From a virus (lineage: Duplodnaviria > Heunggongvirae > Uroviricota > Caudoviricetes): a DNA stretch of 9,399 nt. Below, piece by piece: positions 2,796-8,457 of the stretch. Under the pieces are notes generated by a model. It was not told the origin of the DNA. It made no database searches and saw nothing but the letters and a program-made list of their open reading frames with translations. The stretch lies in IMG/VR virus record IMGVR_UViG_2667527789_000017; one strand, written 5' to 3'. Both the position numbers and the translations under genes were made by a program. Every line of letters begins with the position of its first letter. The first letter of the stretch is position 1.

Positions 2796-3677
2796 TTACA
2801 TAGATGTTTCGTTTAATTCTTCCCGACAAACGCTGTAAACGTCGGTGGCTTTTGCCAGCAGTTCGTCATCATCTGAAAGTTTTTGTGCAATGTATTTGTA
2901 AGCCTTATCCAGTTCGGAGACAGTGCTGTAATTCATCGCTGCGCTGGTAAAGGCCATCAGCATTTCTTCTGGATCACGGCTATCCGCTTTACGCGTTTGC
3001 TCATCATGCTTTTTCGCTGGTTTAGCGTTGATCAGACTGTTCATTCCCGCAGCAGTAGTCGTTTGCGGAGTAATGTCTCGCTCAACACGCGGTGCCGTTT
3101 CCTGTAATTCGTCAGGGGTGTAAACACCGAGAAGCACATCAGGAGCGTGCAGGCGAGCCCATCGTTTCGTGCAAAGATAGGCAAGCTGCTGGCGCGGATC
3201 CTGTTCCCACAATGGAGAGTTACGCACTCCGGCTTGCGCCATACTGATGGTAAGCTCACGGGGTTCTGCTTCTCCTTTAAGAACTGCTGACACAGTTACC
3301 GTCAGATTCGGTGATTTATCTGTTTTGCCGTTAACATTCGACCAGTCACCGCTCCAGCGATAATTCAGGCGTGTCGCTAGCAGGCTGGAAGAGGATACGA
3401 CCGCGTTTACCAACTGTGCTTCGTAGCCTAACGTTCCGTTTACCACATGCGTTTTCTGCGCCACGGCGAAAGGGTTCATTCCCCACTGTGCCGCCTGCAT
3501 GGTCACCGCCAGACAATCGGCAGGTTTGCCTTCAAGATGTTTCGGTACAGTCGCTTTGCTTTGTGACATCAACTCCGCGAAACGCACCAGTTGATTCATG
3601 CCCTCCGGGCTGAAGATTGCCGCAGCAGTACCTACAGTTGCGCCTGGTTGTGATGTGATTGCGATATCATTGCTCAT
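2796..3677 (-). CDS. bet: Bet/Redbeta-family single-strand annealing protein (RecT superfamily)
   Basis: 293-aa ORF; local similarity by eye to lambda Bet (window NPFAVAQK... / RQQLAYLCTKRWARLHAPDVLLGVYTPDELQE / RVERDITPQ versus lambda NPWTKEIYAF... / MLRHKAMIQCARLAFGFAGIYDKDEAER / ERQPERDITP). ATG at 3677 overlaps the exonuclease stop (ATGA). Confidence 0.85.
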   Translation of the reverse strand: MSNDIAITSQPGATVGTAAAIFSPEGMNQLVRFAELMSQSKATVPKHLEGKPADCLAVTMQAAQWGMNPFAVAQKTHVVNGTLGYEAQLVNAVVSSSSLLATRLNYRWSGDWSNVNGKTDKSPNLTVTVSAVLKGEAEPRELTISMAQAGVRNSPLWEQDPRQQLAYLCTKRWARLHAPDVLLGVYTPDELQETAPRVERDITPQTTTAAGMNSLINAKPAKKHDEQTRKADSRDPEEMLMAFTSAAMNYSTVSELDKAYKYIAQKLSDDDELLAKATDVYSVCREELNETSM

Positions 3678-4495: not shown

Positions 4496-4791
4496 GCCGC
4501 GTCCCTCTGTCCATCAAGCTGATCAGCCAGATCCCAGCGGGCGATAATTGCCATTGCCTCGCGCCGGTAGGAATCCATCAGTTCTTCGAACTCTGGACTG
4601 TCTTTAGCGGCCTCCAGTACTTCCTGGCGAACGCCTTTACCTGTTACAGCGTCGAAAGTTGAGGCTAGTTGATGAATCCGGATGCTCTCGATCAGTTCAA
4701 CTTGTCGGTCATATAGCTGTTCTGACAGGCGGTAGTCCTTGTCGAATGCCTGCATGATTTTTTGAAGATTTTTCTGCTGATTAACGTTCAT
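4492..4791 (-). CDS. Hypothetical protein (99 aa) preceding exo; function unknown
   Basis: ORF track gives start at 4806, but the internal ATG at 4791 is preceded by GGAGGG with 6-nt spacing (minus strand ATGGGAGGGCTGATAATG), so 4791 is the likelier start. Stop overlaps the exo ATG (ATGA). Acidic, helical-looking sequence with no recognisable family. Confidence 0.55.
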   Translation of the reverse strand: MNVNQQKNLQKIMQAFDKDYRLSEQLYDRQVELIESIRIHQLASTFDAVTGKGVRQEVLEAAKDSPEFEELMDSYRREAMAIIARWDLADQLDGQRDAA

Positions 4792-4793
4792 TA

Positions 4794-4946
4794 TCAGCCC
4801 TCCCATATCTCGTTATCGTTGGCCACATCGCGAGCTTCTTTGCTGACGAAAGCCCACTTAATGCCTTCCTGTAAGGTGCGGAACTTCCAGCTCATGAATC
4901 CGCATGCAGTAACGCAGTACCAACCGTTGATGATTTTCCACTGCAT
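4794..4946 (-). CDS. Candidate small ORF (50 aa, MQWKIINGWYCVTACGFMSWKFRTLQEGIKWAFVSKEARDVANDNEIWEG), first gene of the leftward operon
   Basis: Not in the supplied ORF track (below its size cutoff). ATG at 4946 is preceded by GAGGT about 8 nt upstream; stop TGA at 4796-4794 lies 2 nt before the next gene's ATG at 4791. Trp/Cys-rich hydrophobic N-terminal half. Sits immediately downstream of operator site 4966-4980. Confidence 0.3.
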   Translation of the reverse strand: MQWKIINGWYCVTACGFMSWKFRTLQEGIKWAFVSKEARDVANDNEIWEG

Positions 4947-4965
4947 AACTTGTTACCTCGGCTTG

Positions 4966-4980
4966 TTACCTTTGAGGTAA
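4966..4980. promoter_or_regulatory. Operator-like palindrome TTACCTTTGAGGTAA (member of TTACC-N5-GGTAA family)
   Basis: Perfect 5-bp inverted half-sites with 5-bp spacer, directly read from sequence; just downstream of the pL-like promoter elements; an orphan TTACC half-site lies at 4953-4957. Confidence 0.7.
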
Positions 4981-4982
4981 TG

Positions 4983-5008
4983 ATTATGCGTATTTGGTTT
5001 GATGTCAA
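4983..5008 (-). promoter_or_regulatory. Putative leftward early promoter (pL-like)
   Basis: On the minus strand a consensus -35 TTGACA (+ strand 5003-5008) is followed by an A/T-rich -10 region CATAATCAT (+ strand 4980-4988). Exact -10 register is ambiguous (best hexamer CATAAT gives a 14-bp spacer). Flanked by operator sites at 4966-4980 and 5028-5042. Confidence 0.35.
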
Positions 5009-5027
5009 TAGATATGAGTTAAAAAAA

Positions 5028-5042
5028 TTACCTGCAAGGTAA
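5028..5042. promoter_or_regulatory. Operator-like palindrome TTACCTGCAAGGTAA
   Basis: Perfect TTACC-N5-GGTAA; centre 62 bp from the centre of site 4966-4980, upstream of the pL-like -35. Confidence 0.7.
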
Positions 5043-5055
5043 TTGTATGGGCAAT

Positions 5056-5078
5056 AAAAAAGCCGCCATGAGGCGGCT
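5056..5078 (-). terminator. Rho-independent terminator of the repressor gene
   Basis: Minus-strand reading: stem AGCCGCC, loop TCAT, stem GGCGGCT, followed by TTTTTTATT. Stem is + strand 5061-5067 paired with 5072-5078, and the U-run corresponds to the + strand A-run 5056-5060. Begins about 22 bp downstream of the repressor stop at 5100. Confidence 0.8.
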
Positions 5079-5099
5079 TACTTGCTGAAAACTATAGTT

Positions 5100-5684
5100 T
5101 TATTGTTTGCTTTTTTCGTTCTGGTTGATGACAAATTCAATGTAACTTTCGATCTTTGCTTTCTCGGTTTCGGGTAACAATGCGTAGCGCGAGCGGTCAT
5201 AGTTGATAGTCGCGGGGTCGTGCGGGTGAATCAGTAATTCATATCCGTGACGCCCGAATGCGGATGCAACATTCTCCAGGGTGGAAATGGAAACGCTGAC
5301 CTCATTGTTTAACAGGCGGCTGATTGTCACCTGGGCGACGCCGGATGCGCGGTGAAGTTTTCCCTGCGTTGAAAGGTCGCGGCTTTCGCTCATCCAGCGT
5401 TCCAGGTTGTGAGCCGCCAGCTGACCAATGTCGCTTGGTCCGACAGGCTGAAAACCTTCCTGAGAAAGCGAGCGATCGATATCAAGCCAGTTACGGGGTT
5501 TATTGGCGGCAGCTTCAATTTTTCGCGCAACCTGGTCGCCGATAACCTTCTTGCCAAGAGCCCAGCGGTTTACCAGATTTGCCTGAGTTCCAAGTTTTTC
5601 TGCCATCCGCGTCTGAACACCATTGAATTCACGGTCGATCAAGTCGTTGAGATTTTGCCTGCGGACGTCCTGGATACTTTTCAT
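5100..5684 (-). CDS. Prophage repressor (CI-like role) with two tandem Cro/C1-type HTH domains and no S24 peptidase domain
   Basis: 194-aa ORF divergent from a Cro-like gene across an operator-rich intergenic region. Two HTH_XRE-like segments: GVQTRMAEKLGTQANLVNRWALGKK and ASGVAQVTISRLLNNEVSVSISTLENVASAFG. C-terminus shows no LexA/CI-type autopeptidase signature. No SD within normal distance of the ATG at 5684, compatible with a leaderless or short-leader mRNA as for lambda cI from pRM. Confidence 0.75.
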   Translation of the reverse strand: MKSIQDVRRQNLNDLIDREFNGVQTRMAEKLGTQANLVNRWALGKKVIGDQVARKIEAAANKPRNWLDIDRSLSQEGFQPVGPSDIGQLAAHNLERWMSESRDLSTQGKLHRASGVAQVTISRLLNNEVSVSISTLENVASAFGRHGYELLIHPHDPATINYDRSRYALLPETEKAKIESYIEFVINQNEKSKQ

Positions 5685-5739
5685 TTTCTGGAAAATCGCC
5701 TCATATATGAATCAGTAGATGATTCAATTTAAAGCAATA

Positions 5740-5754
5740 TTACCCAACAGGTAA
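5740..5754. promoter_or_regulatory. Operator-like palindrome TTACCCAACAGGTAA (immunity region site 1)
   Basis: Perfect TTACC-N5-GGTAA in the divergent repressor/Cro intergenic region. Confidence 0.7.
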
Positions 5755-5756
5755 AT

Positions 5757-5771
5757 GCACCCCATAGGTAA
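5757..5771. promoter_or_regulatory. Operator-like site GCACCCCATAGGTAA (immunity region site 2, one half-site variant)
   Basis: Right half GGTAA perfect, left half GCACC instead of TTACC; centre 17 bp from site 1. Confidence 0.55.
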
Positions 5772-5777
5772 CTATCC

Positions 5778-5813
5778 TTGATTTTTGTTACCTTATGGGT
5801 GAATATTTATTAT
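5778..5813 (+). promoter_or_regulatory. Putative rightward promoter for the Cro-like gene (pR-like)
   Basis: Candidate -35 TTGTTA (5785-5790), 17-bp spacer, -10 TATTAT (5808-5813). Alternative -35 TTGATT (5778-5783) with -10 GAATAT (5801-5806). Operator site 3 overlaps the -35/spacer. Confidence 0.4.
5788..5802. promoter_or_regulatory. Operator-like site TTACCTTATGGGTGA (immunity region site 3, one half-site variant)
   Basis: Left half TTACC perfect, right half GGTGA (reverse complement TCACC, same variant class as GCACC). Lies in the spacer of the putative rightward promoter. Confidence 0.55.
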
Positions 5814-5838
5814 CTGAAATAAATATCAGGCAATAGCT

Positions 5839-6069
5839 ATGAGCGATAACGGACATTTCGATTTCAAAAAGCACTGGCTTGCACTTACTCCGGATGAGCG
5901 TGAAGCCTTCGCACAGGAAGCCGGAACGACGAGTCACTATATCCAGACTCACTTAACAGGTAAGCGCAAAATGCCAGGTAAGGTATTGATGAATGGGCTT
6001 TTTAAAGCCTGTAAAACAAGACAATGGCTGAGCTCAAAAGCAGAACTGGCATACTTCTTCTACTCATGA
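5839..6069 (+). CDS. Cro-like small HTH DNA-binding protein
   Basis: 76-aa ORF divergent from the repressor. AFAQEAGTTSHYIQTHLTGKRKMPGKVLMNGLFKAC resembles the Cro/YdaS-type HTH layout (compare lambda Cro [29 protein letters not shown]). Followed by a strong terminator. Confidence 0.7.
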   Translation: MSDNGHFDFKKHWLALTPDEREAFAQEAGTTSHYIQTHLTGKRKMPGKVLMNGLFKACKTRQWLSSKAELAYFFYS

Positions 6070-6090
6070 TATCCAGCCACAACCCTCTGT

Positions 6091-6114
6091 AGACCGCCAT
6101 CCGGCGGTCTTTTC
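6091..6114 (+). terminator. Rho-independent terminator after the Cro-like gene (tR1-like position)
   Basis: Stem AGACCGCC (6091-6098), loop ATCC, stem GGCGGTCT (6103-6110), then TTTT (6111-6114); 22 bp after the Cro-like stop. Confidence 0.8.
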
Positions 6115-6124
6115 ATATCTATTC

Positions 6125-6139
6125 GCACCTCAAAGGTAA
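6125..6139. promoter_or_regulatory. Operator-like site GCACCTCAAAGGTAA immediately downstream of the Cro-gene terminator
   Basis: Same family (GCACC variant left half, perfect GGTAA right half); lies 11 bp after the terminator T-run and about 80 bp before the next gene. Confidence 0.5.
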
Positions 6140-6217
6140 CAAAAAACCAAATCTGGTTGATCAAATTTTCCAATTGTGCAAAATAGCCAATATCAATAAC
6201 AAAAAGGGGCAGAAAAA

Positions 6218-6430
6218 TTGAAGATAGTAACCAGAATGGAGGCCGCAAAAGCCGGGTTAAATCGCTATTTCACAGGAAAGCGGTGCCGTCACGGCCATCT
6301 CTCTGAAAGGTATGTTCTGAACGGAACATGTGTTGAATGTGCAATGAATAGCGCCAACCGCCATCGTAATGAATTTGCTTGTGCACTAAAGAGTGCAAGA
6401 GGGGAAACCTATGGCAAGCAGCTGGATTAA
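6218..6430 (+). CDS. Small protein with putative zinc-binding motif (C-x-H-x-H ... C-x2-C), function unknown
   Basis: 70-aa ORF from TTG at 6218 preceded by AAAGGGG 8 nt upstream; an internal ATG at 6236 has no SD. Motif GKRCRHGHLSERYVLNGTCVEC. Occupies the position between cro and the replication genes where lambda has cII, but shows no similarity to CII. 3' end overlaps the next gene by 20 nt. Confidence 0.5.
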   Translation: MKIVTRMEAAKAGLNRYFTGKRCRHGHLSERYVLNGTCVECAMNSANRHRNEFACALKSARGETYGKQLD

Positions 6431-7247
6431 GGTTGAAGTTATCACTCCTGATAAACCTGAAATTTTTCAGATAGCAGAAATTCTGGGTATTGATCCAGAT
6501 GCTGTTCTTGGAAAGCTGGTTCGTATATGGGCATGGGCTGACCAGCAAACAATAGACGGTAACGCTGGCAGCGTTACAAAAGGAGTACTTGATAGACTCG
6601 CTTTTATTACAGGATTTGCTGACGCCCTCATTAGCGTCGGATGGCTTGCTTATCATGACGGTAAACTAATTCTTCCAAACTTTGAGCGACACAATGGAGA
6701 ATCATCGAAAAAACGTGCACTTACGAATAGAAGAGTGGCAGAGCATCGAAAACGAGTAACGCAAAAAGTAACGCCAACAGCGTTACAAAAGGAGTTACCA
6801 GAGGAAGAGGAAGAGGAAGAGGAAGATATATATAAAACCCCACACATAGCGCACGTGCGCGAGGGTGCTCCGACCAGTGAAGCGAACGGTATGCCGTTGC
6901 AGGTGGCTGAACCTGAATTTCTGGATGGCCTGAGTGAACCCATCGGGAAATTTCCGATGACCGATGGTTGGCATCCGTCGCCGGATTTTCGACGGCGTGC
7001 TGTGCTGTGGGGAACGGCCCTGCCGGAACCGGAATTTACACCTGCTGAACTTGCTGCATTCCGGGATTACTGGATGGCTGAGGGCAAAGTGTTCACGCAG
7101 GTTCAGTGGGAACAAAAATTCGCCAGGCACGTAAATCATATCAGGGGAAAATCAAAAAACGCCGGGAAAAGCGATGAGCTTGACTGGAATAACACTGACT
7201 GGATAGAAGGGGTGTGGGATGAAATCAACTCCAGAACTTCTCAATGA
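6411..7247 (+). CDS. Replication initiation protein: phage replisome-organiser-like N-terminal region fused to a DnaT-like C-terminal domain
   Basis: ATG at 6411 preceded by AAGAGGGG with 6-nt spacing; the ORF-track start at 6393 has no SD. C-terminal IGKFPMTDGWHPSPDFRRRAVLWGTALPEPEFTPAELAAFRDYWMAEGKVFTQVQWEQKFARH aligns by eye with E. coli DnaT [61 protein letters not shown]. N-terminal SWIKVEVITPDKPEIFQIAEILGIDPDAVLGKLVRIWAWADQ resembles phage replisome-organiser N-domains. Central poly-Glu linker. Confidence 0.85.
   Translation: MASSWIKVEVITPDKPEIFQIAEILGIDPDAVLGKLVRIWAWADQQTIDGNAGSVTKGVLDRLAFITGFADALISVGWLAYHDGKLILPNFERHNGESSKKRALTNRRVAEHRKRVTQKVTPTALQKELPEEEEEEEEDIYKTPHIAHVREGAPTSEANGMPLQVAEPEFLDGLSEPIGKFPMTDGWHPSPDFRRRAVLWGTALPEPEFTPAELAAFRDYWMAEGKVFTQVQWEQKFARHVNHIRGKSKNAGKSDELDWNNTDWIEGVWDEINSRTSQ
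6559..6577. repeat. Inverted repeat GTAACGC-TGGCA-GCGTTAC followed by AAAAGGAGT (copy 1 of intragenic repeat)
   Basis: Directly read; 7-bp arms with 5-bp spacer, inside the replication-initiator gene. Confidence 0.7.
6756..6786. repeat. GTAACGC half-site (6756-6762) plus inverted repeat GTAACGC-CAACA-GCGTTAC (6768-6786) followed by AAAAGGAGT (copy 2)
   Basis: Shares GTAACGC ... CAGCGTTACAAAAGGAGT with copy 1 but sits in a different codon phase of the same gene (copy 1 starts at codon position 2, copy 2 at position 1), so the repeat is conserved at the DNA level rather than the protein level. Confidence 0.7.
6801..6824 (+). repeat. Hexanucleotide tandem repeat (GAGGAA)x4 encoding a poly-Glu linker
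   Basis: gaggaagaggaagaggaagaggaa read directly; translates as EEEEEEEE in the initiator gene and is followed by AT-rich GATATATATATAAAA. Confidence 0.9.
6849..6860. repeat. Perfect 12-bp palindrome GCGCACGTGCGC
   Basis: Read directly; lies just downstream of the AT-rich stretch inside the initiator gene. Confidence 0.7.
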
Positions 7248-7995
7248 GTACGATCGCTTACGTGAGCATGGTGTTGATGTGCATGAAGAGCGGCGTGGCA
7301 GCAATGGCAAAAAGGAGCAGGTTGCTAGAATTTTCAATGAACTATTTGTCCAGTTACAGGCTGCATTTCCTGCAAGCGTTTCGACCATAAGGGAGCAGAA
7401 CAAACTTAATGAATTCCGTAAGCAATGGATGCTTGCGTTTCTGGAGAATGGGATCACTACAATGGAACAGGTTAACGCTGGTATGCGCCACGCTCGCGCC
7501 AGTGAGTCTCCGTTCTGGCCGTCGCCAGGGCAATTCATCAAGTGGTGTAAAGACAGCAAGATGGTTCTTGGCGTCACCATTGACGATGTGATGGCGGAGT
7601 TTCACCGGTACAGCAAGGAAAAAAGTTTATATCCTGGTGGTCCCGAAAGATTCCCGTGGTGGCATCCGGTTATGTACTGGGTCGTATGTGATACCCGCCG
7701 TGCAATGTATCAGCGCCAGCTTAGCGAGATTGAGGTTGAGAAACACGCGCGCAGGCTGCTCGATGATTGGGCGAAAAAGGTGGCTTCCGGACAGCAGATA
7801 CCCGATCCGGTGATCAGCATACAGGCAAAGCCAGAACCCATGAGTACGCCTCCGGACACAGGGAGAGACGTTTACCATCCACCAGGGCGAAGTTTCGGGT
7901 GTATGCCTAACGCCGCCACCCTGGGGGGAATAACACCGGCGCAGTGGCTGATGGAGGAATGCAGGCGGGGAAAGGCGTCAGGATTTATCAAGTAA
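7219..7995 (+). CDS. P: Replication protein P homologue (lambda P-like helicase-loader)
   Basis: 258-aa ORF; VARIFNELFVQLQAAFPASVSTIREQNKLNEFRKQWMLAFLENGITTMEQVNAGMRHARASESPFWPSPGQFIKWC is near-colinear with lambda P VAQIINGVFSQLLATFPASLANRDQNEVNEIRRQWVLAFRENGITTMEQVNAGMRVARRQNRPFLPSPGQFVAWC. ATG at 7219 preceded by GAAGGGG; overlaps the 3' end of the initiator gene by 29 nt. Confidence 0.9.
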   Translation: MKSTPELLNEYDRLREHGVDVHEERRGSNGKKEQVARIFNELFVQLQAAFPASVSTIREQNKLNEFRKQWMLAFLENGITTMEQVNAGMRHARASESPFWPSPGQFIKWCKDSKMVLGVTIDDVMAEFHRYSKEKSLYPGGPERFPWWHPVMYWVVCDTRRAMYQRQLSEIEVEKHARRLLDDWAKKVASGQQIPDPVISIQAKPEPMSTPPDTGRDVYHPPGRSFGCMPNAATLGGITPAQWLMEECRRGKASGFIK

Positions 7996-8000
7996 TACCA

Positions 8001-8020
8001 GCGCGATAGCGCATTTTTTT
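8001..8020 (+). terminator. Weak candidate intrinsic terminator after the P-like gene
   Basis: Short stem GCGC (8001-8004), loop GATA, stem GCGC (8009-8012), then A and TTTTTTT (8014-8020). Only a 4-bp stem, so low confidence. Confidence 0.3.
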
Positions 8021-8032
8021 ACGCCTCGATAA

Positions 8033-8047
8033 TTACCTGTTGGGTAA
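8033..8047. promoter_or_regulatory. Operator-like palindrome TTACCTGTTGGGTAA
   Basis: Perfect TTACC-N5-GGTAA, upstream of the promoter-like elements that precede the gene at 8113. Confidence 0.7.
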
Positions 8048-8066
8048 TAAAATATTCTAAAATCTA

Positions 8067-8095
8067 TTGATTTAGTGTCTTATGTGGTTTTTAAT
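8067..8095 (+). promoter_or_regulatory. Putative sigma70 promoter for the downstream operon
   Basis: -35 TTGATT (8067-8072), 17-bp spacer, -10 TTTAAT (8090-8095); predicted start site falls inside operator site 8096-8110. Confidence 0.45.
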
Positions 8096-8110
8096 TACCT
8101 TAGAGGTAAA
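8096..8110. promoter_or_regulatory. Operator-like palindrome TTACCTTAGAGGTAA overlapping the transcription start and RBS of the gene at 8113
   Basis: Perfect TTACC-N5-GGTAA; its GAGG doubles as the Shine-Dalgarno sequence 6 nt before ATG 8113; centre 63 bp from the centre of site 8033-8047. Confidence 0.7.
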
Positions 8111-8112
8111 TC

Positions 8113-8457
8113 ATGAGAAAACAGATACAGGCTCTTGGTCGACTCAAAACAGGCCAGATGAACAAAACAGAATCTGCGTATTGCCAGCACCTTGAGCTGC
8201 GTAAACGTGCAGGAGAAATCGTCTGGTATCGATTTGAGGGTATCAAGCTGCGGTTAGCTGACAACACGTTCTATACGCCCGATTTTGCTGTGATGCTCGC
8301 CACCGGCGAGATGGAACTGCACGAAGTGAAAGGTTTCTGGACCGACGACGCCAGGGTGAAAACCAAAGTCGCCGCAGATCAGTATCCGTTCCGAATCATC
8401 GGGGTAACGGTTAAACCAAAGAAAGCAGGTGGTGGCTGGAACATCGAAGAGTTCTGA
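8113..8457 (+). CDS. DUF1064-like phage protein with PD-(D/E)XK nuclease-type motif (putative structure-specific nuclease)
   Basis: 114-aa ORF; FYTPDFAVM ... ELHEVKG gives a D ... E-x-K arrangement typical of PD-(D/E)XK nucleases. Overall pattern recalls the DUF1064 family of small phage proteins, assigned from memory only. Confidence 0.6.
   Translation: MRKQIQALGRLKTGQMNKTESAYCQHLELRKRAGEIVWYRFEGIKLRLADNTFYTPDFAVMLATGEMELHEVKGFWTDDARVKTKVAADQYPFRIIGVTVKPKKAGGGWNIEEF

Follow-up and report, generated by a model that had tools for sequence, protein, structure and literature searches.

The segment analysed here (the window) comprises 9,399 nucleotides (nt) of caudovirus DNA (IMG/VR record IMGVR_UViG_2667527789_000017) and corresponds to the early region of a Uetakevirus (phiV10/epsilon15-like, podovirus) prophage, with 96-98% identity to HEMP4, TL-2011b and phiV10. 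Two of its lytic promoters, the leftward promoter PL and the rightward promoter P3, are each bracketed by a pair of palindromic sites, candidate operators of the prophage repressor Rep. The gene map agrees with the annotated phiV10 record. The integrase gene lies at the left end on the plus strand (phiV10 annotation), and the leftward operon, which runs from PL towards it, consists of two small genes followed by recE/recT-type recombination genes, regulators and a methylase. Next in map order are a terminator, the repressor gene, the divergent intergenic region with the OR operators and a small cro-like gene; the map continues rightward with replication genes, a terminator, and a DUF1064 gene with further early genes. 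This is the gene order of epsilon15/SPC32H-type Rep-operator immunity regions, both in the left part (integrase, recombination, PL, terminator, rep and OR) and in the right part (cro-like gene, replication genes, P3 and a DUF1064 or RuvC-like gene). Rfam gave zero matches across the whole window, and a structured RNA was rejected on that ground. The two promoter modules and the repressor gene are made up of the following features.

5028-5042: distal PL operator TTACCTGCAAGGTAA, an exact palindrome, centred at about -62 from the predicted PL start.
5003-5008, minus strand: PL -35 hexamer TTGACA, from the promoter scan.
4980-4985, minus strand: PL -10 hexamer AATCAT, the final T of which also opens the proximal operator.
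4966-4980: proximal PL operator TTACCTTTGAGGTAA, predicted from the hexamer positions to span about -7 to +8 and overlapping the last -10 base.
5060-5079, minus strand: intrinsic terminator after rep, directly upstream of the distal PL operator and also annotated in the phiV10 record.
8033-8047: distal P3 operator TTACCTGTTGGGTAA, an exact palindrome, the epsilon15 equivalent of which is annotated as repressor-binding.
8067-8072, plus strand: predicted P3 -35 hexamer TTGATT, read from the sequence.
8090-8095, plus strand: predicted P3 -10 hexamer TTTAAT, which shares its final T with the start of the proximal operator.
8095-8109: proximal P3 operator TTACCTTAGAGGTAA, an exact palindrome.
8001-8020, plus strand: putative terminator of the replication operon, a short GC hairpin with a T7 run (phiV10 annotation).
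5100-5684, minus strand: rep, the prophage repressor gene, 194 amino acids, a full-length homologue of SPC32H Rep.
4794-4946, minus strand: first gene of the PL operon, 50 amino acids, a homologue of phiV10p39 and epsilon15 gp37.
8113-8457, plus strand: first P3 gene, encoding a DUF1064 protein, possibly a nuclease (Pfam PF06356, E = 2.9e-07).

Five exact matches to TTACC-N5-GGTAA were found in the 9.4-kb window, at 4966-4980, 5028-5042, 5740-5754, 8033-8047 and 8095-8109. The mean chance expectation was 0.01 and none of 200 dinucleotide-preserving shuffles reached five, so that chance palindromes were ruled out. Weaker sites were located at 5757-5771 (two mismatches), 5788-5802 (one mismatch) and 6125-6139 (two mismatches). 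The four sites listed in a preliminary description of this DNA are thus real, but that inventory left out the fifth perfect site at 5740-5754 and the three weaker ones. It had also given the two pairs as 62 and 63 bp apart. The first value stands; the second does not, since the last site lies at 8095-8109 rather than 8096-8110, and the centre-to-centre distance is exactly 62 bp in both pairs (5035 to 4973 and 8040 to 8102). As is characteristic of the epsilon15/SPC32H family, palindromic (A)TTACC-N5-GGTAA(T) sites are present at PL, at OR and at the promoter downstream of the replication genes.

Both promoters were compared in 11 lineages, namely the window, Enterobacter phage Tyrion, BUCT711, SPC32H, epsilon15 and prophages of six further hosts (Superficieibacter, Erwinia, Klebsiella, Scandinavium and two Citrobacter species). 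At PL, the exact palindromes flank a minus-strand TTGACA/AATCAT promoter, and the consensus -35 hexamer between them, noted before, was found at 5008-5003. TTGACA with a 17-nt spacer and AATCAT matches the consensus at 10/12 positions and was the best sigma-70-like match within 4700-8400 in the consensus scan. The sequence CTATTGAC at the PL -35 is kept in 11/11 lineages, and the -10 register recurs in other clades, as GATTAT or AATTAT. From the usual 7-nt distance downstream of the -10, by which both starts were placed, PL transcription is predicted to begin at the midpoint of the proximal operator, near 4973 on the minus strand.

An equal bracket was confirmed at the second promoter, where 8033-8047 and 8095-8109 flank the rightward P3 in an identical layout. 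The P3 hexamers were not reported by the consensus scan, the -10 rule of which excluded TTTAAT. At the P3 -35 position, CTATTGA is present in 10/11 lineages and GTATTGA in Tyrion; the Klebsiella clade has a better -10, ATAAAT. The predicted start is at about 8102 on the plus strand, again the centre of the proximal operator, the right half of which (GAGGT) doubles as the Shine-Dalgarno sequence of the gene starting at 8113. A reading of P3 as two tandem promoters with one operator each (TCGATA-16-TAAAAT, 8026-8053, with the distal operator in its spacer) was ruled out because SPC32H, Tyrion and BUCT711 do not share its -35, TCGATA, which falls within the stretch of highest variability.

In size the two modules agree throughout: the 15-bp distal operator is followed after 19 nt by the -35 and, after a further 17 nt, by a -10 that merges into the 15-bp proximal operator. 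In both, the distal operator has its centre at about -62, and the proximal one covers positions of about -7 to +8. Each distal operator directly follows a terminator, and an A/T-rich tract directly follows each distal operator in all lineages (T7 in PL, TAAAATAT in P3). Within the window the PL and P3 spacers are about 47% identical by a position-by-position count, and a recent duplication, by which equal spacing would have been trivial, was ruled out, the spacers being this divergent apart from CTATTGA. An ancient common origin of the two promoters may be envisaged.

Rep matches the structure of SPC32H Rep (PDB 5D50) over residues 1-190 with 43% identity (phmmer, E = 3.5e-42), and the structure of the SPC32H C-terminal fragment (PDB 5D4Z) at E = 3.6e-20. 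The homology extends across all three domains, which by Pfam and 5D50 homology are an N-terminal helix-turn-helix (HTH) DNA-binding domain, a middle HTH_3-like dimerisation domain and a C-terminal domain for tetramerisation and binding of the antirepressor Ant; no S24 peptidase domain was detected in Rep by Pfam. An alignment of Rep from four clades has 69 invariant columns, including NLVNRW, the presumed recognition segment in the N-terminal HTH domain, and the C-terminus, where 13 of the last 33 residues, in the tetramerisation/Ant-binding region, are invariant. Rep proteins of the four clades are 43-78% identical to that of the window, yet all four use TTACC-N5-GGTAA sites.

The palindromes are very probably Rep operators controlling PL and P3. 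Rep was taken as the binder because the equivalent 17-bp sites in the epsilon15 record (AY150271.2) are annotated protein_bind 'repressor / lysogeny', because the sites cluster at three promoter regions flanking rep, because NLVNRW is invariant wherever the same motif is used, and because the half-sites leave a footprint. The last point comes from 79 aligned phiV10-like loci with 99-100% identical Rep, in which the half-sites are invariant and the operator centres and adjoining linkers are the most variable positions of 3.7 kb, a pattern that reads as a clear phylogenetic footprint. An overexpressed ZX5 repressor identical to that of the window lowers lytic transcription, and ZX5 ORF4 acts as an antirepressor when overexpressed (PMC9782041); no operators were defined in that paper. 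On protein homology, operator sequence and synteny, the system is assigned to the epsilon15/SPC32H Rep-operator family.

Facts on SPC32H Rep and Ant were taken from later papers and not from the original SPC32H studies. As described in PMC9638917 and PMC6868357, SPC32H Rep forms dimers and tetramers, DNA is bound by the tetramer and only weakly by the dimer, each palindrome is proposed to be read by DNA-binding domains paired between different dimers, a single tetramer is enough for repression, and the tetrameric Ant splits Rep into dimers. PMC9986798 likewise gives the tetramer as the DNA-binding form, and assigns the C-terminal domain to the p53-like 'TetDloop' fold, which is also the fold behind DNA looping by pLS20 Rco. 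By homology to this tetrameric repressor and by conservation of its C-terminal domain, Rep of the window would also be a tetramer with two DNA-binding units, and such a tetramer would therefore offer a physical basis for pairwise cooperative binding. Every main control region has at least two operators, with distances of 62 bp at PL and P3 and of 17 and 30-31 bp at OR.

The spacing of the pairs is conserved. Across the 11 lineages, in which Rep is 41-78% identical to that of the window and the motif and paired geometry are the same, the two operators lie 61-63 bp from each other at PL and 61-62 bp at P3. When IMG/VR relatives were included, 226 loci were obtained, representing 144 unique module combinations and about 36 distinct Rep proteins. 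Among the 144 unique modules, the PL spacing was 61 bp in 3, 62 bp in 86, 63 bp in 53 (every Klebsiella-clade module and a few others) and 64 bp in 1, and the P3 spacing was 62 bp in 134 and 61 bp in 1; 279 of 279 measured pairs fell within 61-64 bp. Rare variants of +/-1 bp in the phiV10 group are slips in the T-run adjoining the distal operator. The flanking lengths vary, from 51 to 68 nt between the Rep stop codon and the distal operator and from 17 to 92 nt between the proximal operator and the ATG, and spacer sequences are 55-100% identical between lineages. The two operators thus flank a promoter at a conserved distance, which is one trait of repression systems that loop DNA between paired operators (lac, gal, deo and lambda-CI type). 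In distant homologues that share only the DNA-binding domain (Paraburkholderia, Hydrogenovibrio and Thiomicrospira; loci L011-L015) the motif is absent and the comparison is uninformative.

The best explanation as a whole, held with slightly more confidence than doubt, is that a Rep tetramer holds both operators of a pair and the core promoter between them is looped. The lytic promoters under Rep would be PL, serving recombination, excision and integration genes, and P3, serving the DUF1064 gene and those downstream. Rep at the proximal operator would cover the transcription start and block RNA polymerase directly, while one tetramer would occupy both operators, binding cooperatively, and its distal contact would bend the 47-bp stretch with the whole core promoter into a tight micro-loop. 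The result would be very tight repression at two promoters that each lie just downstream of a terminator, and induction would, as in SPC32H, result from splitting of the tetramer by an antirepressor and not from RecA-driven cleavage. For the narrower proposal, cooperative occupation of each pair by a single tetramer that loops the DNA, the chances are judged to be even. Promoter-containing lac loops of less than 0.4 persistence lengths repress in vivo, helped by HU (PMC3001091), and a 62-bp loop is therefore physically plausible. That a single Rep tetramer, through pairs of DNA-binding domains drawn from different dimers, closes a micro-loop of about 62 bp round the core promoter alone, with the 61-64-bp spacing seen at both promoters throughout the genus tuned to the geometry of the tetramer, is put forward tentatively, as a possibility that leans towards doubtful.

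Several points weigh against this interpretation. Promoter geometry (-35, spacer and -10) accounts for 28 of the 47 bp that separate the operators, which leaves the 19 +/- 1 nt ahead of the -35 as the sole informative part. The 12-nt distance from the terminator to the distal P3 operator is equally constant in the 11 lineages, so that inheritance of a whole module without insertions or deletions can mimic a constraint on spacing; inheritance of a fixed promoter module could thus explain the constant distance. Natural variants of +/-1 to 2 bp exist, with 63 bp fixed in the Klebsiella clade, and any phase requirement is therefore loose; no spacing variants of about +/-5 bp (half a turn) occur among the 144 unique modules. 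The helical repeat in vivo is about 11 bp per turn, as known from lac spacing studies, so 62 bp is not an integral number of turns. The OR operators lie 17 and 30-31 bp apart, and Rep must therefore accommodate very different spacings. Finally, the preliminary description had treated PL and P3 as two independent promoters. They are separate bracketed promoters, but full independence does not hold, CTATTGA and identical internal distances being common to both, and the two are not fully independent evidence.

Among the alternatives, the most serious, although judged unlikely, is that the operators act independently without a loop, the proximal one alone excluding RNA polymerase and the 62 bp being the length of a module inherited intact. 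Rep at the distal site may then mask A/T-rich, UP-element-like DNA and block docking of the C-terminal domain of the RNA polymerase alpha subunit (alpha-CTD), or it may be a roadblock, stopping transcription that passes the terminator 8-12 nt upstream, from rep into PL and from the replication operon into P3. The terminator ahead of both distal sites and the A/T-rich tract after them suit these roles; the constant terminator distance makes constancy of length not specific to the pairs, and the degree of spacer identity between lineages means that the spacers are not saturated. Lone Rep-type sites also exist in phiV10 (3252, 20497 and 24692). The chief counterpoints are the weak DNA binding of the homologous Rep dimer, the tetramer being the binding species (PMC9638917), and the tight positional conservation: a roadblock or occlusion of an UP element would tolerate drift, yet all measured pairs keep to 61-64 bp while their flanks vary by tens of bp. 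A lone operator would moreover leave half of the DNA-binding domains idle, and each major regulatory region has at least two sites (PL, P3, OR and phiV10 87/105).

It is distinctly improbable that Rep at the distal site touches RNA polymerase from a class I position, either trapping it at the promoter or stimulating the promoter when the distal site alone is filled, so that the pair would be a concentration-dependent switch and not a loop. The position itself would suit such contacts: in both modules the distal centre precedes the first base of the -35 by 27 bp, and in every lineage it falls at about -62. A centre at about -61.5 is the classical class I activator position, from which stereospecific alpha-CTD contacts are known at CRP class I promoters. 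This repressor family is not known to activate transcription, distal and proximal sites are both perfect, so that ordered filling is not evident from the sequence, and the effect of the ZX5 repressor is to lower lytic transcription (PMC9782041). Least credible of all is that the sites are functionless chance palindromes or are bound mainly by another protein, such as the cro-like product of 5839-6069, for although lambdoid Cro shares operators with the repressor, such sharing would add to Rep control and not replace it, the sites exceed chance and are kept across four clades, the epsilon15 record assigns them to the repressor, and NLVNRW is invariant wherever the motif is kept.

The preliminary description had further noted an orphan TTACC half-site beside the proximal PL operator.

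4953-4957, minus strand: TTACC, which reads on that strand as the GGTAA of GAGGTAA, the Shine-Dalgarno sequence of the first PL gene, as read from the sequence.

The TTACC is present, but a half-operator role does not hold up. GAGGTAA lies 6 nt ahead of the ATG at 4946, and the TTACC sits in a 9-bp direct repeat, CTTGTTACC (4949-4957 and 4962-4970), so that it is most simply, and probably, a Shine-Dalgarno sequence and not a regulatory half-operator. Its interpretation as a relic of a third PL operator was unsupported, the ATG register being 6 nt versus 13 nt. Such a third perfect operator occurs in the epsilon15/SPC32H clade, 76 bp downstream of the proximal site and just ahead of the first gene (5148-5162 in SPC32H, locus L002; 5794-5808 in epsilon15, L096, and in the Citrobacter loci L008 and L010). 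A degenerate version with a 4-nt centre lies at the equivalent place in BUCT711 (Klebsiella clade), and the phiV10/Tyrion clade is without the segment of about 70 bp that carries it. The Scandinavium prophage (L009) has both pairs at 61 bp and an extra one-mismatch operator (5681-5695) between the PL -35 and -10, 20 bp from the proximal site.

Three operators lie in OR, and a single weak site lies further right.

5740-5754: perfect OR operator, an exact match, nearest to rep.
5757-5771: middle OR operator, two mismatches, 17 bp from the 5740-5754 site.
5788-5802: OR operator, one mismatch, overlapping the core of the rightward promoter PR.
5839-6069: first rightward gene, in the cro position, with a 76-amino-acid product.
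6125-6139: weak single site GCACCTCAAAGGTAA, two mismatches, after the terminator that follows the cro-like gene.

In the epsilon15, SPC32H and Klebsiella clades the counterpart of the middle OR site matches the motif perfectly. The spacing is 17 + 31 bp in the window and 17 + 30-31 bp also in SPC32H, epsilon15, two Citrobacter prophages and Erwinia; only two of the three OR sites are present at no more than one mismatch in the remaining lineages. The 76-residue product had no Pfam match at E < 0.1 and contains an HTH-like stretch, AQEAGTTSHYIQTHLTGKR. The 6125-6139 site lies about 25 bp upstream of a TTGATC hexamer (6157-6162) and has one-mismatch counterparts at a similar place in Tyrion and BUCT711 (both at locus coordinate 4546) and in Superficieibacter. 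It may mark a fourth Rep-controlled promoter, for the replication genes, with a 'distal' operator only.

In the rest of the phiV10 genome (locus L097, phiV10 record 1-26700) six Rep-type sites were found against 0.32 expected.

87-101 and 105-119: two sites with a spacing of 18 bp, close to where the small terminase gene begins.
3252-3266: Rep-type site.
20497-20511: perfect site about 270 bp upstream of a putative anti-immunity (antirepressor) gene, beyond an annotated terminator.
20877-20891: Rep-type site.
24692-24706: Rep-type site.

No further 62-bp pair was found among these. The bracket design thus appears specific to PL and P3, and Rep appears to be a genome-wide regulator; the positions suggest that it also controls late genes and its own antagonist. 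Induction by a LexA-controlled antirepressor, and not by self-cleavage of the repressor, is a trait of the epsilon15/SPC32H family. The window itself holds no antirepressor gene, the putative anti-immunity gene lying elsewhere in the phiV10 genome.

Variability within the operators was ranked over the 79 phiV10-like loci. The centre of the distal P3 operator (8038-8042) takes 32 different pentamers, rank 1 of 3291 five-nt windows (background mean 2.6 pentamers, 99th percentile 8). Next in variability are the linkers between terminator and distal operator (5043-5050 and 8023-8031) and the centres 5033-5037 and 8100-8104. Loci that are identical over +/-100 bp still differ at operator centres, mostly by transitions. 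Far less variability is seen at OR, where the three centres take 1, 2 and 6 pentamers and the perfect 5740-5754 site is invariant. On local trees the centres required 20-25 changes versus 13-19 in the most variable coding columns; with homoplasy just modestly in excess of coding columns and relaxed constraint possible, hypermutation of the centres was not upheld. The centres may be a mutational hot spot, their variation may tune the strength of the operators, or they may simply be the sole unconstrained bases. Rep proteins of Salmonella and Klebsiella phages that are 43-45% identical to that of the window share the same operator half-sites and the same NLVNRW. Judged by these residues, phages of different hosts may be homoimmune at the level of DNA recognition, or specificity may instead reside in the antirepressor-binding C-terminal part.

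The closest known system is SPC32H Rep/Ant (PDB 5D50, 5D4Z), which resembles the window in full-length Rep homology, gene order and site positions, with TTACC-N5-GGTAA pairs 62 bp apart at PL (L002 5010 and 5072) and P3 (2642 and 2704). Two features of SPC32H are absent from the window, namely a third PL operator, also perfect, and a second perfect OR site next to the first. The tetramer has been reported for SPC32H Rep and would apply to phiV10-type Rep by homology. The antirepressors differ, phiV10-type phages carrying a protein with Bro-N/antirepressor domains (PMC9782041). In epsilon15 (AY150271.2), the Rep of which is 43% identical to that of the window, the annotated sites are the PL pair, the third PL site and the distal P3 site; the pairs have the same motif and the same 62-bp spacing. 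That record annotates just one of the two P3 sites and zero OR sites, and is silent on spacing and cooperativity.

By analogy, the proposed arrangement is like lac O1/O3, minimal lac loops and the gal repressosome, in which a tetrameric repressor and two operators bracket a promoter. The protein families are unrelated, and the natural spacings are 92 bp (lac) and about 113 bp (gal), whereas in the window the pair encloses the core promoter alone (62 bp) and the design is used at two promoters. Likeness to lambda CI would lie in the occupation by a phage repressor of two operators about six turns apart, with the DNA between them bent; the map order of PRM, repressor gene, terminator and PL is similar too. 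Lambda CI reportedly binds cooperatively to operators moved 5-6 helical turns apart, in the engineered constructs of Hochschild and Ptashne of 1986. The natural lambda operators are adjacent (20-24 bp), natural looping takes place between OL and OR, and the CI dimer pairs through its C-terminal domains and is inactivated by RecA-assisted cleavage. Unlike lambda CI, the repressor of the window would be an obligate tetramer inactivated by an antirepressor. Plasmid pLS20 Rco and the CI repressor of lactococcal phage TP901-1 also combine an N-terminal HTH with a C-terminal oligomerisation domain and act on several separated operators round divergent promoters; SPC32H Rep and Rco share the TetDloop fold (PMC9986798). 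Looping by Rco differs in that it involves several tetramers or octamers and many operator copies, and the hosts, operator sequences and spacings differ. The mechanism is not new in kind, paired-operator cooperativity and looping being textbook matter and operators having been annotated already for epsilon15. Neither the 62-bp bracket conserved at both promoters nor a link between it and the tetramer was found described in the literature covered, the primary SPC32H and epsilon15 papers excepted, and a search of the literature on Uetakevirus operators gave nothing further.

The solved structure of the SPC32H Rep tetramer, mechanistically under-characterised by one account, is now tied to a conserved geometry of its DNA target, in which two operators 62 bp apart enclose the whole core promoter, at two promoters. 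This yields a testable model of how the Rep family silences lytic genes and of why an antirepressor that splits the tetramer would free both sites together. The prophage module is common in E. coli, the 161-bp PL module being present in 291 of 5426 complete genomes, O157 and other Shiga toxin-producing E. coli backgrounds included. If the model is true, the Rep micro-loop of about 62 bp would rank among the smallest natural repression loops, and the variable centres of the distal operators could tune loop strength, and hence the induction threshold, between homoimmune prophages.

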